Positions 18,504-63,397 of a stretch of DNA of 64,000 nucleotides are shown here, piece after piece. Made by a program: the position numbers and the translations under genes. Location: assembly GCA_944380295.1 (NCBI GenBank), contig CALWHE010000008.1, positions 6,233-70,232 of the forward strand, written 5' to 3'. The notes under the pieces are model-generated. The model worked only from the letters and a program-made list of their open reading frames with translations. It had not been told where the DNA came from and did not search any database. Each line of letters starts with the position of its first letter. Position 1 is the stretch's first letter. The stretch is from an uncultured Christensenellaceae bacterium. GTDB lineage: Bacteria > Bacillota > Clostridia > Christensenellales > UBA3700.

Positions 18504-18977
18504 GTGAATAAAGTAAAAGCCGTTGTATTGTGTATAGGCACCATGCGCGTGATCGGGGACAGCGTGGGTCCGCGCGTGGGCGACATCTTAAAGGCGCGCG
18601 GAGTGGATTGTTTTGTCTATGGTGACAGCGCGGGCAACGTGAACGCGCTCAAACTGGATGTTTACGAAAATCTGCTGCGCGTCTGTCACTCCGGCGACGT
18701 GGTGATCGCCGTGGACGCCGCGCTGGGAGAAAATGAAGACGTCGGACGGGTGAAAGTGACCGGCAACGGGCTTTTCCCCGGCAGAGCGCTGGGCAGGGCG
18801 CGCGGCAGAGTGGGGGACATAGGCGTGCTCGCCGTGATGGGAGAAAAGGGCGAGGACAACTTTGCCCGCCTTGCCGCGGGCAGCGAGGCGTTTGCCGAAC
18901 ATATGGCGCAAAAAGCGGCGGACATCACACAGGAGCTGGTGGAATATATCAATATGTCCTGCGCAAGGGCGCAATGA
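18504..18977 (+). CDS. yyaC: Spore protease YyaC / DUF1256 family
   Basis: VLCIGT..VIGDSVGPRVG, VNA, IAVDAALG, PGRALG, VGDI. The last codons are supplied by the downstream repeat element. Confidence 0.85.
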   Translation: MNKVKAVVLCIGTMRVIGDSVGPRVGDILKARGVDCFVYGDSAGNVNALKLDVYENLLRVCHSGDVVIAVDAALGENEDVGRVKVTGNGLFPGRALGRARGRVGDIGVLAVMGEKGEDNFARLAAGSEAFAEHMAQKAADITQELVEYINMSCARAQ

Positions 18978-19207
18978 GCGATAAGCGAAAGTATGCGCCC
19001 TTGCGCAGGACATGAAATTTTTGCGCAGATATAAATGAGCGGCAAGCGAATGTATATCTGCTGCGCAAAAGTGAAATGTTTTTGCCTTGCAAGGCAAAAA
19101 CGTGAAATGTGCCCTCAAACCGCAAGCGACGAGAGGGCACGTGAAATGCCCGCTCATACTGCCGTGCATAGCACGGCGCATCGCGGACGTGGCGGCTGCC
19201 TGCGGCG
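18955..19207 (+). repeat. Structured hairpin-array element, copy 1 ((G/A)TGAAAT-punctuated)
   Basis: Hairpins separated by RTGAAAT at 19012, 19071, 19102 and 19141. Reverse-complement homologue at 33731-33974. Confidence 0.92.
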
Positions 19208-19210
19208 ATT

Positions 19211-19303
19211 TATTACACTTCATTGTATAAACATTGCAAAGTGACCATCTGCAAACACGAAAAAGTTACTTCAAGGCATATGAGGGGTGGAGCGCCCCGC
19301 GCT
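19211..19303 (+). repeat. Dispersed ~93-bp segment ending in a REP-like core, copy 1
   Basis: Aligns with 33587-33680 in the same orientation (14 mismatches and 1 gap by hand alignment). Confidence 0.88.
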
Positions 19304-19430
19304 TCCATCGCCCTCCTGCGCACCCTTAACAGCATTTGCCCGGGCAGCGTAACGCTGCACCCTTATTTTCCGAATACATGGTTGTGTGAATGGTCATGCC
19401 GTCAGTATCATTATATACCCAACAGATATC

Positions 19431-19503
19431 GGTGTGAATAGTAACGCTTATCAACGGTTCCGTCGCTGCGGAGCACATAAAGGGGTGGAGCGCCCCGCGC
19501 TCC
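19431..19503 (+). repeat. REP-like element with conserved flanks and variable middle
   Basis: GGTGTGAATAGTAACGC-N19-TGCGGAGCACATAAAGGGGTGGAGCGCCCCGCGCTCC. Reverse-complement homologue at 63323-63397. Confidence 0.85.
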
Positions 19504-19546
19504 CGCGCTGCCGCGGGACATAACGCTCTCTTTGCAAAGTATTTAC

Positions 19547-19575
19547 TTGACTATTGCACATATTTATATTATTAT
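19547..19575 (+). promoter_or_regulatory. Probable sigma-A promoter of ftsH
   Basis: TTGACT-17 bp-TATTAT. Confidence 0.55.
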
Positions 19576-19609
19576 AAGTGTATTATCGTATACCATAGGG
19601 GATAATGAA

Positions 19610-21745
19610 GTGACAAAAAATCAAAAAATATTGAGGATAGTCCTCATCGTGCTTTCCGTGGTGGTCATCGCGTTGCTTTTGTGGATGATCTTTTCTCCGG
19701 AAGGTCCCAAGGAGATAGACTATCAGACGGATGAAGAAAACCGCAAGGGCTTGGTCGACATGATAGTCAACGGCGAGGTGCAGGCCGTTTACGTGAACGG
19801 TTACACGGCGTATGTGCTCACGGTCGAACAGGGGATCGGCACGCAGGAATTTTATAAAAATCCCACTTCCGCGGCGGAATATTTCTGCTATATGCCGTAT
19901 AGCTATGCTTTGAACAACACGGTGCTCACGCAGGAAGACGGCACCGAGGTCATGCTTTCCTCGCTCACCACCATTCGTTACGCCAACGCGCAGAGCAATT
20001 CCACGCTCACTTCGCTCATCGTGCCCATCGTGGGCGTGGTAGTGATAGGCATCATCATCTTTTTCATCTTCCGCCAGAGCGCGGGCGCCAACAAGCAGGC
20101 GATGAACTTCGGCAAGCTCAAAGCGCGCGTGAACATGAACGTGAAAGTGCGTTTTGACGACGTTGCCGGCGCGGATGAAGAAAAAGAGGAATTGCAGGAG
20201 ATAGTGGAATTTTTGAAATCCCCCGCCAAATTCACCGCTTTGGGCGCGCGCGTGCCCAAGGGCGTGCTGTTGGTGGGACCTCCCGGCACGGGTAAAACGC
20301 TGTTTGCAAAAGCCGTGGCGGGCGAAGCGGGCGTGCCTTTCTTTTCCATCTCCGGTTCGGACTTTGTGGAGATGTTCGTGGGCACGGGCGCGGCGAGGGT
20401 GCGCGATCTGTTCGATCAGGCAAAGCGCAACATGCCCTGCATCGTGTTTATCGACGAGATAGACGCCGTGGGACGTCAGCGCGGCGCGGGTCTGGGCGGC
20501 GGACACGACGAGAGAGAACAAACGCTCAACCAGCTGCTGGTGCAGATGGACGGCTTTGAAAAGAACGAAGGTATCATCGTGATGGCAGCCACCAACCGCG
20601 CGGACATTCTCGACCCCGCGCTGCTGCGCCCGGGCAGGTTCGACAGGCAGATATACGTTTCCCTGCCGGACGTGAAGGGCAGAGAAGCCATTTTCAAGGT
20701 GCATTCGCGCAATAAGCCGCTCGCGCCCGACGTATCCTTTAAGATACTGGCGCGCATGACCAGCGGTTTTTCCGGCGCGGACATAGAAAACCTGCTCAAC
20801 GAAGCCGCTATCCTGGCGGCGCGCGCGGGCAGGAAGGTCATCGTCATGGTAGACCTTTTGGAAGGCATCAACAAGGTGATCGCGGGACCGCAGAAAAAGA
20901 GCCGCGTGGTCACGGAAACGGATAAGCGCATCACCGCTTATCACGAATCCGGACACGCCATCGTGGCAAAGCTGCTGCCCGGCTGCGACGAGGTGCAGGA
21001 AGTGAGCATCATTCCGCGCGGCATGGCGGCTGGCTACACGCTCACCCGTCCCGACACTGACGACAGCCACGTCACGCGCAGCAAGCTGCACGACACCATT
21101 GCCATGATGCTGGGCGGCAGAGCGGCGGAAGAGATAGTCATTCACGATATCTCCACCGGCGCGTCCAACGATATCCAGCGCGCCACGCAGATCGCGCGCA
21201 GCATGGTCACGGAGTGGGGCATGTCGGAGGCGATCGGCAACATCTATCTGGGCGGCGACAAAGAGGTGTTTTTGGGCAAGGATTTCGGCGCCACGCACAC
21301 ATACAGTGAAGAGCTGGGCGGAGTGATAGACGTGGAGATCCGCAAGATAATAGACGGAGCGTATGAACGCGCGCTGTCCATTTTGCGCGAACATCGTTCC
21401 GTTTTGGACAATATGGTCAAGGTGCTTTACGCCAAGCAGACCATTTATACCGACGAAGTGAACATGCTCTTTGACGGCAAGAGCGCGGAAGAGGTGATCG
21501 CGGACATCGACGCGCGCGCCAGCAGGCGTGACGCGCAATTCGGCGCGGCAAAGCCGGAGGGCGCCGTGCGCGGGGTGAACATCGTGTCCGAGCGTGAAGA
21601 GGCCGCGCAAGCGCCGCAGACGGAAAGCCGGGAGCCTGCGCAGGAGCAGCCGGCGGAAAGTCTGCCGCAGGAGCCGGGCAAGGCGGAAGAGGGTGCCGAG
21701 CCGCCCGCGGCGCAGAAAGAGCGCGAGAAAAAAGAGGATAAGTGA
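19610..21745 (+). CDS. ftsH: ATP-dependent zinc metalloprotease FtsH
   Basis: Two N-terminal TMs, [36 protein letters not shown] start at 19610. Confidence 0.97.
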
Positions 21746-32228: not shown

Positions 32229-32981
32229 ATGAGAAGACCTATTATTGCGGGTAACTGGAAGATGAACAACACCAAGGCGCAGACCTATGCGCTGCTCAAC
32301 GACCTTGTGCCGCTTGTCAAAGACGCGGAAGCGGAAGTGGTCATCTGCGTGCCTTACACCTCCATTTGGGCGGCGGGCGACGCCATAAAGGGCACCAATA
32401 TCCACCTGGGCGCGGAAAACGTGCACTGGGCGGAAAAAGGCGCTTTCACCGGCGAGATCTCCGCTGACATGCTCAAAGAGCAGGGTGTGGAATATGTGAT
32501 AATCGGACACTCCGAGCGCCGTCAATACTTCGGCGAAACAGACCAAACCGTGAACATGCGCGTGAAGGCGGCTTTGGCGCACGGGCTTAAACCCATCATC
32601 TGCGTGGGCGAAACGCTGGAAGAGCGCGAAGGCGGCAAGGTGGAAGAAGTGCTGGTGCGCCAGACCACGGAAGCGTTCAAGGAGATAGACAAAGACGAGC
32701 TGGACAACATCGTCATCGCCTACGAACCCGTTTGGGCTATCGGCACCGGCAAGACCGCTACCGCGCAGGACGCCAACGATACCATCGCCATCATCCGCGG
32801 CACCATCGCCAAACTTTATTGCGAAAAGTGCGCGGACAAGATCCGTATCCAATACGGCGGCTCCATGAATCCCAAGAACGCCAAAGAATTGATGGCAATG
32901 CCTCAAATAGACGGCGGACTTATCGGCGGGGCTTCCTTGAAGGCGGTGGACTTCTCGCAGGTGGTCAAATATAACGCATAA
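32229..32981 (+). CDS. tpiA: Triosephosphate isomerase
   Basis: AGNWKMN, GAFTGE, GHSERR, AYEPVWAIGTG, YGGS, LIGGASL. Confidence 0.98.
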   Translation: MRRPIIAGNWKMNNTKAQTYALLNDLVPLVKDAEAEVVICVPYTSIWAAGDAIKGTNIHLGAENVHWAEKGAFTGEISADMLKEQGVEYVIIGHSERRQYFGETDQTVNMRVKAALAHGLKPIICVGETLEEREGGKVEEVLVRQTTEAFKEIDKDELDNIVIAYEPVWAIGTGKTATAQDANDTIAIIRGTIAKLYCEKCADKIRIQYGGSMNPKNAKELMAMPQIDGGLIGGASLKAVDFSQVVKYNA

Positions 32982-32987
32982 AAGAAT

Positions 32988-33054
32988 AAGCGAAAGAGAA
33001 AAAGGATAAGGCGGGTCCCGTTTTCAACGGGGTCTGCCTTTTCCTCTTTCGCTT
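32988..33054 (+). terminator. Long interrupted hairpin after tpiA (possible terminator or processing site)
   Basis: AAGCGAAAGAG...AAGGCGGGTCCCGTT-TTC-AACGGGGTCTGCCTT...CTCTTTCGCTT. Confidence 0.55.
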
Positions 33055-33194
33055 GCTGAAAGACAACCCCGCCATTGAAGATAGGCGCCGAGTGAAAGTG
33101 CCGTGCGATAAAACATTTTAATGTTCTGACAATATCTGCGCACAGCACTTTGCGCCTACGTGAGAGGGGCAAACCCGACACGCTCCGCTGCGGT

Positions 33195-33597
33195 TTTCCC
33201 CTCGTTTTGCGGCGAGATATAAGAAAGCGTGCAAGCGTTAGCCGCAAAAATTCACTCTTTCCGCCGCCGCGGGAGCGGCGCGCAAGGCAGTCGCCTTGCC
33301 CAAGGTGTGCTCACCGAAAAGCGCGGTTTTCGGTGGCAGGATATTACCACTTTCATTGATAGATATAACACCGGTGATATAAAGCGCAATATATCGCCGT
33401 TTTATTTTTTTGAGGCGTAGTTTCCCCTCTTTTTGCGGACGGCGTGATCTCGTATCGCACTTGGTTGTGCCGCAAAAATTCACCTCTTCCGCCCTCATTC
33501 GCTCCGCGCGCTCCGCTCATTCGGAAAATACGCACGGCGCATTTTAGAGGTGCGCTCGTCCAAAAGTGCGATTTTGGACGGCGGGATATTACACTTT
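33195..33597 (+). repeat. Two tandem structured units (A 33195-33353, B 33421-33597)
   Basis: Shared scaffold TTTCCCCTC.TTTTGCGG-var-GCCGCAAAAATTCAC....TCCGCC-var-AGGTGYGCTC-stem-GCRGGATATTAC with compensatory stems. Confidence 0.85.
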
Positions 33598-33724
33598 GCT
33601 GTGTAAGCATTGCAAAGAGATCAGCTGGAAAGACGAACAAGTTACTTCAAGGCTTGATCAGGGATGGAGCGCCCCGCGCTCCCGTCATGCTGCCGCACCG
33701 CGCTCCGGGTGCAGCATTACACTC
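33587..33724 (+). repeat. Dispersed segment plus REP-like core, copy 2
   Basis: 33587-33680 is homologous to 19211-19303. CGCGCTCCGGGTGCAGC near 33699 matches the reverse complement of 63307-63330. Confidence 0.85.
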
Positions 33725-33730
33725 TAATAG

Positions 33731-33974
33731 CGCCGCAGGCAGCCGCCACGCACGACGAGCGCGGAGCTGTATCGTCGTGCATTTCACGTGCCCTCTCGTC
33801 GCTTTGCGGATTGAGGGCACATTTCACGTTTTTGCCAATGTGTTGGCAAAAACATTTCACTTTTGCGCAGCAGATATACATTCGCTTACCGCTCATTATA
33901 TCTGCGCAAAAATTTCACGTCCGGAGCGGCACGGCACACTTTCGCTTATTGACTTTGCCGTGCCGCACAGGACA
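33731..33974 (-). repeat. Structured hairpin-array element, copy 2 (inverted)
   Basis: ATTTCAC at 33781, 33821, 33854 and 33912 separates hairpins. Reverse complement of 18955-19207. Confidence 0.92.
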
Positions 33975-34057: not shown

Positions 34058-35602
34058 ATGAGTTTTACCGGACTTATCATCATGGATGGCTACGGCGTGA
34101 ATCATTTTGCGCCTTTCAATGCGGTATCGCCGGAAACGGCGCCCAACGTGCTCAAACTGTTTGCGGAAAATCCCGCCACCGTGCTGGACGCCAGCGGTCT
34201 TGCCGTGGGACTTCCCGAGGGACAGATGGGCAACAGTGAGGTGGGGCACCTCAACATCGGCGCGGGCAGGATAATTTATCAGGAGCTCACCCGCATCACA
34301 AAATCCATTCAAGACGGCGATTTCTTCACCAATCCCGCCCTGGTCAAGGCGATGACTTCGGCAAAGGAAAATGGCAAAAAACTGCACGTGATGGGACTTG
34401 TGTCGGACGGCGGCGTGCATTCGCATAACACGCACCTTTACGCGCTGGTCAAAATGGCAAAGCAGATGGGTCTTGACAACGTGTATATCCATTGCTTTAT
34501 GGACGGCAGGGACGTGCCGCCGGAATCGGGCAAGGGTTACATAGAGGAATTGCAGCAGCAGCTCAAACAGATGGACTTCGGCAAGATAGCCACGATAAGC
34601 GGCAGATTTTACGCCATGGACCGCGACAACATCTGGGACAGGGTGGAAAAGGCTTACGCCGCGCTTGCCGACGGCGAGGGTGTGCAAGAGAGCGACCCCG
34701 TGCAGGCGATGCAGAACAGTTACGACAGGGGCGTGACGGACGAATTCGTGGTGCCCACCGTGATCCAAGAGGGCGGCAAGCCCGTGGCGACGGTGGACGA
34801 AGGGGACAGCATCATCTTCTTCAACTTCCGTCCGGACAGGGCAAGGCAGATCTCCCGCGCCTTTATCTATCCCGACTTTGACAAATTCACGCGCAAAAAG
34901 GGCTTTTTGGCGCCCTGCTACGTGTCCTTTACCCAGTATGACGTGACGTTCAACGACAGGCTCGACGTGGCGTTCCGCCCCGAGAGCTATGTGAACACGC
35001 TGGGCGAATATCTCTCCAAAAACGGGATAAAGCAATTCAGGATAGCGGAAACGCAAAAGTATGCGCACGTGACCTTCTTCTTCAACGGCGGCGTGGAAGC
35101 GCCCAATCCCGGCGAGGACAGGATACTCATCGATTCGCCCAAGATAGCCACTTTTGACATGAAGCCGGAGATGAGCGCATATGAAGTGGCGGAGCGCGCC
35201 TGCGAGGAGATAAAGAGCGGTAAATACGACGTGATGATCCTCAACTTTGCCAACGGCGACATGGTGGGACACACCGGCGTGCTGGAAGCCGCGCGCAAAG
35301 CCGTGAAAGTGGTGGACGAATGCGTGCAGCAGGTGGTGGACGCCATCCTGTCCGTGGGCGGCAAGGCGCTGATCACCGCCGACCACGGCAACTGCGATTA
35401 TATGTATGAGCCGGACGGCACGCCTTTTACCGCGCACACCACCAACCGCGTGCCCCTCATCGCCGTGGGCGACGACAGCATCTGCTTTTTGGAAAACAAC
35501 GGCAAACTGTGCGACATCGCTCCCACGTTGCTCGACATGATGGGGCTGCCCGCGCCCAAGGAAATGACGGGCAGGAGCCTCATCAGGCACAAGGTCGGCT
35601 GA
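34058..35602 (+). CDS. gpmI: 2,3-bisphosphoglycerate-independent phosphoglycerate mutase
   Basis: IMDGYG, GQMGNSEVGH, SDGGVHSH, DGRDVPP, GRFYAMDRD, NFRPDRA, DMVGHTG, TADHGN. Confidence 0.97.
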   Translation: MSFTGLIIMDGYGVNHFAPFNAVSPETAPNVLKLFAENPATVLDASGLAVGLPEGQMGNSEVGHLNIGAGRIIYQELTRITKSIQDGDFFTNPALVKAMTSAKENGKKLHVMGLVSDGGVHSHNTHLYALVKMAKQMGLDNVYIHCFMDGRDVPPESGKGYIEELQQQLKQMDFGKIATISGRFYAMDRDNIWDRVEKAYAALADGEGVQESDPVQAMQNSYDRGVTDEFVVPTVIQEGGKPVATVDEGDSIIFFNFRPDRARQISRAFIYPDFDKFTRKKGFLAPCYVSFTQYDVTFNDRLDVAFRPESYVNTLGEYLSKNGIKQFRIAETQKYAHVTFFFNGGVEAPNPGEDRILIDSPKIATFDMKPEMSAYEVAERACEEIKSGKYDVMILNFANGDMVGHTGVLEAARKAVKVVDECVQQVVDAILSVGGKALITADHGNCDYMYEPDGTPFTAHTTNRVPLIAVGDDSICFLENNGKLCDIAPTLLDMMGLPAPKEMTGRSLIRHKVG

Positions 35603-63252: not shown

Positions 63253-63303
63253 TGTAAAGCGTTTTGCCTCACTTTTTTCGGATGTTTTGCGGCAGCGGCA
63301 GCG

Positions 63304-63397
63304 GCAGCGTGACGCTACACCCGGAGCGCGGGGCGCTCCACCCCCTTATATGCTGCGCAAAATCTTTGCTTTGCTTAGAGGCGTTACTCTTCGCACC
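63304..63397 (-). repeat. REP-like element, inverted copy
   Basis: Minus strand reads GGTGCGAAGAGTAACGC-N21-TGCGCAGCATATAAGGGGGTGGAGCGCCCCGCGCTCCGGGTGTAGCGTCACGCTGC; homologous to 19431-19503 and 19344-19363. Confidence 0.85.

Follow-up and report, generated by a model that had tools for sequence, protein, structure and literature searches.

The two hairpin arrays in the window, i.e., the whole stretch of 64,000 nt analyzed here, are members of a dispersed multi-copy family, and arrays of this kind are consistently associated with genes encoding an Avd-like four-helix-bundle protein. This association represents the main new lead of the present analysis. The protein concerned is the 23S-rRNA-IVS protein (hereafter IVP; PF05635/TIGR02436; 115–120 aa). 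According to the interpretation favored here, which we give slightly better than even chances, the arrays constitute a Gut-1-like family of about 100 copies in the source genome, comprising the ends of an IVP-linked cassette as well as gene-less derivatives thereof, and IVP binds the array.

A first-pass annotation of the sequence had described two array copies on opposite strands, each composed of five hairpins (H1 to H5) separated by (G/A)TGAAAT linkers. Both were found by sequence inspection at these positions and with this layout (Table 1), and the H1, H3 and H5 arms as well as the loop motif AAGCGA were present as quoted. Copy 2, like copy 1, ends in GTGGCGGCTGCCTGCGGCG and carries GTGAAAT at 33912-18, 33854-60, 33821-27 and 33781-87 (minus strand). 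In a repeat search of the window, the two copies paired as six inverted segments with 79–98% complementarity. Metatranscriptome contigs from other runs cease to match the window at 18953-18955, thereby marking the 5' boundary of copy 1. On its own, the heptamer is not enriched (12 matches in the window versus 8.85 expected; 16 of 100 shuffles reach 12); it is the heptamer arrangement and the array copy number that are far from chance.

Table 1. Coordinates of the arrays, repeat islands and neighboring genes in the window
Feature	Position	Strand	Remarks
DUF1256 gene	18504..18977	+	Pfam; last codons and stop supplied by array H1
Repeat island 1	18951..19514	.	Entire DUF1256-ftsH intergenic region; sequence with at least 3 copies (self-BLAST coverage)
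Hairpin array copy 1	18954..19207	+	H1-H5, linkers ATGAAAT and GTGAAAT (three times), tail GTGGCGGCTGCCTGCGGCG; nhmmer match C8:25188-25438
Copy 1 H1	18956..19011	+	18-nt arms, loop with TAAGCGAAAG
Copy 1 linker 1 ATGAAAT	19012-19018	+	
Copy 1 H2	19019..19070	+	Arms TTTTGCGCAGATATA.../...TATATCTGCTGCGCAAAA; 4 pairs with double changes (RNAalifold helix 3)
Copy 1 linker 2 GTGAAAT	19071-19077	+	
Copy 1 core GTGAAAT-H3-GTGAAAT-H4-GTGAAAT	19071..19147	+	Most conserved part; aligns to Gut-1 model
Copy 1 H3	19078-19101	+	
Copy 1 linker 3 GTGAAAT	19102-19108	+	
Copy 1 H4	19109-19140	+	
Copy 1 linker 4 GTGAAAT	19141-19147	+	
Copy 1 H5	19148-19188	+	Three main H5 alleles across genome
Copy 1 tail GTGGCGGCTGCCTGCGGCG	19189-19207	+	H5-plus-tail segment 19148..19207 includes degenerate fifth junction GTGGCGG
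ftsH	19532..21745	+	Pfam Peptidase_M41 and AAA; downstream neighbor of island 1
tpiA	32229..32981	+	Pfam TIM; neighbor of island 2
Repeat island 2	32980..33974	.	Fills tpiA-gpmI intergenic region
Hairpin array copy 2	33731..33974	-	H1, H3-loop and H5 alleles unlike copy 1; nhmmer match C8:40205-39964
gpmI	34058..35602	+	Pfam iPGM_N; copy 2 array 5' end about 7 nt upstream of promoter-like TTGACT box (congener upstream regions aligned)

Both window copies are gene-less and lie within larger repeat islands. Comparison of C-termini with those of five congeners revealed that the C-terminal tail and stop of the DUF1256 protein gene were replaced by H1, the stop codon TGA (18975-18977) falling inside the H1 loop of copy 1. 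The orthologous site in the congener G001 is devoid of island 1. The tpiA-gpmI adjacency is kept without an array in G002, and arrays are present there in G001. Besides its array, island 1 contains the modules D2 (19203-19277) and D3 (19283-19321 and 19481-19519), as deduced from a repeat search, and a possible inverted terminus CGCGGGACAT at 19512-19521. The D2/D3 modules of island 2 (33579-33698) are inverted in orientation relative to the array as compared with island 1.

Modules accompanying the arrays were recorded at 19203-19321, 19481-19519, 33579-33698 and 63301-63359 of the window. One of them is 75 nt long and ends in GTTACTTCAAGGC; furthermore, the small GC hairpins GGAGCGC-GGG-GCGCTCC and GCAGCG-TGA-CGCTGC accompany arrays. 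The 75-nt and GGAGCGC modules have opposite orientations relative to the array in islands 1 and 2, and similar modules also occur in G007, a genome without arrays. The non-coding stretch 3' of tpiA (33000-33450) holds a repeated CCGCAAAAATTCAC motif, and similar stretches were seen by eye upstream of gpmI in G001.

The genome from which the window originates (G000) belongs to a chicken-gut bacterium and is represented by a 1.75-Mb assembly of 27 contigs that is 96.6% complete. BLASTN and nhmmer searches of the whole assembly bore out a dispersed family, yielding 97 nhmmer matches, of which 51 were near full length (model positions ≤5 to ≥237). Short repeats with at least five copies account for 3.4% of the genome, are distributed over 153 islands and make up 14% of contig C6. 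Moreover, a second subfamily features the same architecture with the linker GCGATAT. Counted on both strands of the genome, GTGAAAT occurs 399 times and GCGATAT 534 times, versus 161 and 191 expected from base composition, respectively.

In order to evaluate pairing across the family, 50 of the 51 near-full copies were aligned, the copy left out having an insertion in H4. RNAalifold predicted 61 pairs, with double changes in 22 of them. Among 3049 stem cells of the 50 copies, 99.1% pair, versus 89.5% in shuffles, and 296 cells represent double changes, versus 101 in shuffles; the observed values were reached by none of 500 shuffles. When partners were slid by 1–3 columns, pairing fell to 30–54%. 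The earlier proposal that stem sequences differ between copies, with pairing and linker conserved, is thus upheld by the pairing and double-change figures. Variation takes the form of discrete whole-stem alleles, and single-side (G.U) intermediates are rare in the 50 copies. For H1, at least three main, fully compensated alleles were distinguished (CAAGGGCGC, CGGCACGGC and CCGCCGAAC), and H5 likewise has three main alleles. Since few whole-stem alleles are inherited by many copies, the cells count copies and not independent events, the latter being few; each independent event is a complete compensated stem replacement. Every one of the nine possible combinations of main H1 and H5 alleles was found, and so was each of the six H1 x H2 and six H2 x H5 combinations; hairpin modules recombine freely among copies. 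According to the RNAalifold model, the helices run two pairs (A-U, U.G) into the heptamer, leaving a GAA junction (closing pairs 66-124, 67-123, 128-157, 129-156, 161-197 and 162-196).

The first-pass annotation did not recognize a named family. The absence of a named relative is not supported, as copy 1 is a sub-threshold match to the Rfam family Gut-1 (RF01706). In an E-value-based Rfam search of 18800-19700, the match covered 19047-19152 with 33.8 bits (cut-off 50; E 1.3e-4), and its junction consensus, GAA within GUGAAAU, is the same as that of the array. No match at gathering level was obtained across the whole window. In G000, 36 same-strand sub-threshold Gut-1 matches were counted, the best scoring 34.9 bits and none exceeding the cut-off. 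Matches above the cut-off were obtained in the congener G006, in G009 from another genus, in G073, G080, G081 and G082, and in IVP loci. In G006, 21 Gut-1 matches were found, and its mini-hairpin units follow a regular 21-nt period. Gut-1 and the window array share consecutive hairpins closed by A-U/U.G, the GAA junction and strand polarity. They differ in that Gut-1 is 77 nt long with three mini-hairpins, whereas the array measures about 250 nt with five hairpins of 24–56 nt, scores below the cut-off (33.8–34.9 versus 50 bits), reaches about 100 copies per genome and shows mosaic hairpin alleles. It is well supported that the array is a genus-specific, amplified and enlarged relative of the orphan Gut-1 motif. 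Gut-1 was listed by Weinberg et al. 2010 as 'RNA? Y', 'human gut only' and non-cis-regulatory, with no function given in the covered part of the article (PMC2864571). Within the covered parts of the literature on Gut-1 and on IVP, no link between the two was found.

Regarding a partner, the first-pass annotation had seen no cognate enzyme in the window, and indeed no partner gene is located there; PF05635 matches were obtained on contigs C3 and C9 of the same genome. It had also proposed tabulating several protein classes beside other copies, and the four-helix-bundle protein turned out to be the associated one. The two IVP genes of G000 are located at C3:34579-34878 and C9:12051-12347. Both are accompanied by arrays on either side at a distance of no more than 300 nt, a situation seen for 4 of 1295 open reading frames overall, the latter set consisting of crude script calls. 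Linkers are paralogue-specific in this genome: arrays near the C3 gene use GTGAAAT, and those near the C9 gene use GCGATAT. In G001, IVP is encoded between two inverted arrays. G004 harbors two cassettes of about 1.25 kb in which inverted five-hairpin arrays surround IVP, with linkers GTGATAT in one and GCGAAAT in the other, and in G009, which belongs to a different genus, the IVP gene adjoins GTGAAAT arrays.

The association extends to a broader set of unrelated IVP loci, which was limited to the best 80 of 595 matches and comprises only MAGs of Clostridia or Verrucomicrobia. Arrays were detected in 42 of these 80 loci, versus 0 of 400 shuffles, by means of a detector that relies on exact 6-mer linkers and misses arrays with degenerate linkers (seen by eye in L058, L059 and L065). 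Within the same best 80 of 595 matches, 56 of 62 detected arrays are located within 300 nt of the IVP gene, a zone that comprises 20% of the sequence, and 52 of these are upstream. Linker classes in IVP loci include GTGAAAT, GCTAAAT, ATGAATT and CGATAT. Usually, a convergent pair (sense, then antisense) immediately precedes a promoter-like box and the IVP gene. As judged by eye, the promoter-like -35/-10 boxes lie between arrays and IVP start in typical loci, and the arrays therefore may not belong to the IVP mRNA. In that case, array RNA would have to arise from separate transcription or from read-through.

Of 74 genomes of the family, 11 showed co-occurrence of IVP and Gut-1, IVP alone was found in 6, Gut-1 alone in 5 and neither in 52 (odds ratio 19; Fisher p 8e-6), related genomes among the 74 not being independent. 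Of the six IVP genomes without a Gut-1 match, G004 and G054 carry other linkers. In the 94%-complete assembly of G006, which has 21 Gut-1 matches, no IVP gene was found. Linker type and IVP clade do not match in a simple manner: the C9 protein shares a deletion with proteins located beside GTGAAAT- or TGAAAT-type arrays (G009, G069). IVP may be the binding partner of the array.

The structure predicted for IVP (pLDDT 93.6) retrieved the entries 2RLD and 2GSC by Foldseek, each with chains A-E. Furthermore, it matched Avd (4DWL) as well as the Avd chains of the DGR ribonucleoprotein entries 8UB7/8UBE, in both cases with a TM of about 0.8 and at a sequence identity to Avd of 12–16%. Avd forms a pentamer, and we know of no catalytic activity of IVP. 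The IVP family was noted inside cas loci, and IVP was called functionally uncharacterized in a 2024 preprint. Homology of PF05635 to Avd was described previously (PMC10053308).

Several features point to mobile-like behavior of the arrays. Among seven congeners, the family was detected in three by BLASTN, and GYGAWAT-linked arrays were detected in five by pattern. Comparison of orthologous sites, as suggested at the outset, showed arrays to be present or absent between species, both at the site of copy 1 and at the locus L008, where a 965-nt island lies between convergent genes in G000 and the native bidirectional terminator is kept in G001 (95 nt) and G005 (61 nt). At the two filled and empty sites compared, neither a target-site duplication nor a clean insertion scar was observed; the islands replace native sequence. 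Inverted terminal arrays are present in 10 of 59 islands, and array 5' ends point outward in 10 islands and inward in none. With the same crude set of open reading frames as above, 29 of 85 array-5'-end matches lie within 10 nt of a reading-frame boundary, 24 of them at or overlapping co-directional stops. Full-length cassette relatives encode only the 115–120-aa four-helix-bundle protein. No match to Pfam RVT_1, the single reverse-transcriptase model used, was obtained in the 96.6%-complete G000 assembly and IVP is without known catalytic activity, so that no mobility enzyme was identified. With PF07282, the single TnpB-type model used, one weak match below the cut-off was obtained, inside a 767-aa open reading frame. 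Array pieces were recovered in three chicken-gut metatranscriptome runs, as unstranded contigs with possible DNA carry-over, at a depth relative to ftsH no higher than copy number predicts; in these runs, no contig joined across the island.

Based on these observations, the arrays behave as would the ends of a small selfish cassette that has given rise to many gene-less derivatives. In this genus, the cassette comprises an array, IVP and an inverted array within about 1.25 kb. Gene-less derivatives have multiplied, and intergenic regions are now filled with them as far as stop codons and promoters. An IVP oligomer is predicted to bind the folded array with one subunit per junction, which would fit the four exact heptamers plus a degenerate fifth and the five chains in each solved-homologue entry. 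The bound form could be RNA or the same strand as single-stranded DNA, and binding would help the cassette to maintain itself, control its expression or spread, with array-only copies using IVP supplied in trans. Selection would keep pairing and junctions, and recombination among copies would reshuffle whole hairpin alleles. The initial proposal of a non-autonomous element mobilized in trans holds to the extent that a non-autonomous element with a trans-acting partner is the best fit, while mobilization itself is something that we infer. A bolder version can be advanced only tentatively: Gut-1-type arrays and the Avd-like protein might together represent a new kind of selfish element that also underlies ORF-bearing rRNA intervening sequences, in which a protein ring reads hairpin junctions (one heptamer per subunit, paralogue-specific) and gene-less arrays spread in trans without a classical transposase.

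It is unlikely, in our view, that the arrays are instead host-serving RNAs, namely 3'-UTR stabilizers, terminators/insulators or processing platforms that owe their spread to recombination and their retention to selection, IVP being merely lodged beside them. Such a role would agree with the 24 of 85 array 5' ends located within 10 nt of, or overlapping, a co-directional stop, with the island at L008 that replaces a native bidirectional terminator, with the rating 'RNA? Y' assigned to Gut-1 by its discoverers, and with G006, in which 21 arrays but no IVP gene were detected. However, the arrays are devoid of a U-tract and are also found in antisense orientation ahead of genes, copy 2 and gpmI being one example, and congeneric species that have these genes do without the arrays. 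The crowding of 56 of 62 arrays around the IVP gene in the best 80 of 595 loci is likewise difficult to reconcile with a bystander role of IVP.

A location of arrays just upstream of promoter-like IVP boxes (by eye), the regular 21-bp period of the G006 units and the resemblance of convergent GTGAAAT/ATTTCAC to inverted operator repeats could also suggest that IVP or another DNA-binding protein uses the heptamers as double-stranded DNA operator sites, the hairpin potential being secondary. Heptamer spacing ranging from 11 to 90 nt, pairing that survives whole-stem replacement (99.1% paired) and conserved T.G closing pairs on one strand only render this improbable. It appears even harder to maintain that the arrays are REP/BIME-like single-stranded DNA elements mobilized by an HUH Y1 transposase (RAYT or IS200-type TnpA), which we regard as very improbable. 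G000 does possess three Y1_Tnp genes, and the combination of a hairpin with a short conserved motif resembles the REP hairpin with its GTAG motif, but these genes correspond to ordinary IS200-like copies within IS200-type flanks of their own, none is flanked by arrays, and no Y1 association was seen in cassettes of other genomes. Y1/IS200 transposases were accordingly rejected as mobilizers.

A close known counterpart of the IVP-linked cassette is the 23S rRNA intervening sequence with its S23p/IVP ORF, which shares the protein family and a small ORF bracketed by inverted stem-forming sequence. A PF05635 ORF between or beside inverted arrays was found in G000 (C3 and C9), G004, G001 and G009, that is, at the level of genomes and not in the window. 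The intervening sequence of Coxiella was described as a selfish element in the covered part of the source (PMC4990558). A further likeness is the location of cassettes beside stable-RNA genes in other genomes: in 13 IVP loci scanned with Rfam, the gene directly upstream was a tRNA gene in six and that of RNase P RNA in one. In contrast to the intervening sequences, the window copies are located between protein-coding genes, local hairpin arrays take the place of one long stem in the flanks, and most copies are without an ORF. IVP/Gut-1 cassettes were observed directly after the terminators of tRNA genes (L096, L099, L103, L111, L131, L162) or RNase P RNA (L137), echoing the rRNA location of classical intervening sequences. 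At L068 (G009:C1:264832-268128), several partial tRNA 3' ends lie between the IVP/array cassette and the real tRNA gene, which would fit repeated insertion at a tRNA-end site.

The other systems compared share single features with the arrays. DGR Avd and its RNA resemble them in the fold common to IVP and Avd, but no Pfam RVT_1 match was found in the G000 assembly and identity to Avd amounts to 12–16% only. In REP/BIME elements (RAYT) and pneumococcal BOX elements, hairpin modules are combined variably into mosaics that occupy intergenic positions at gene boundaries in high copy number. The same description applies to the arrays; their modules, however, are parted by an exact heptamer, and the associated protein belongs to another family, with no RAYT involved. 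As in MITEs, most copies are short and gene-less and only a few carry a gene, terminal arrays are inverted with 5' ends outward, and presence or absence varies between species. Unlike in MITEs, neither a DDE transposase nor one of another type is encoded by the cassettes, no target-site duplication was visible at the two filled and empty sites compared, and the ends are structured arrays and not simple terminal inverted repeats. A CRISPR array was rejected, since the constant unit is 7 nt long (versus repeats of at least about 23 nt) and the variable units are palindromes recurring among copies, not unique spacers.

Gut-1 has been without known function since 2010, and IVP is widespread and structurally solved; linking them gives each a testable partner. 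Moreover, the link suggests what the ORFs of rRNA intervening sequences recognize and provides Avd-like proteins with a context independent of DGRs. G000 represents a natural amplification in which about 100 arrays with two orthogonal linker types coexist with only two protein genes, and these numbers make it a convenient place for tests of binding specificity. It also illustrates that structured repeats can take over 3.4% of a 1.75-Mb genome, replacing native terminators and gene ends.

Additional repeats were recorded during the analysis. In G000, a repeat of about 200 nt with TTGACAATACCGCAAGAGTATTGCC and a promoter-like appearance is often located just 5' of arrays (C1:26300-26560, C3:64078, C6:78463 and C9:4356, among others), and a second repeat, GCAGCGTGACGCTGCACCCC..., is nested in the H4 loop of some arrays (C1:53002-52723, C6:24722-24525). 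The three Y1 genes (C5:40935-41252, C11:8468-8785 and C5:24870-25130) share a sharp end at a near-identical short sequence, beyond which the copies are no longer similar and unrelated DNA follows, and C5:24818-25130 has internal stops. Contigs C25-C27 have a lower G+C content (0.38–0.51), contain none of the repeats and may be of plasmid, phage or foreign origin. In G005, reversed-pattern matches were dismissed as arrays because they represent unrelated tandem repeats with units of 40–44 nt (C10:48429-48787 and C7:4484-4650). Each unit on C10 holds a GTCCAC-TAAA-GTGGAC hairpin, a motif that is also present inside G000 islands.
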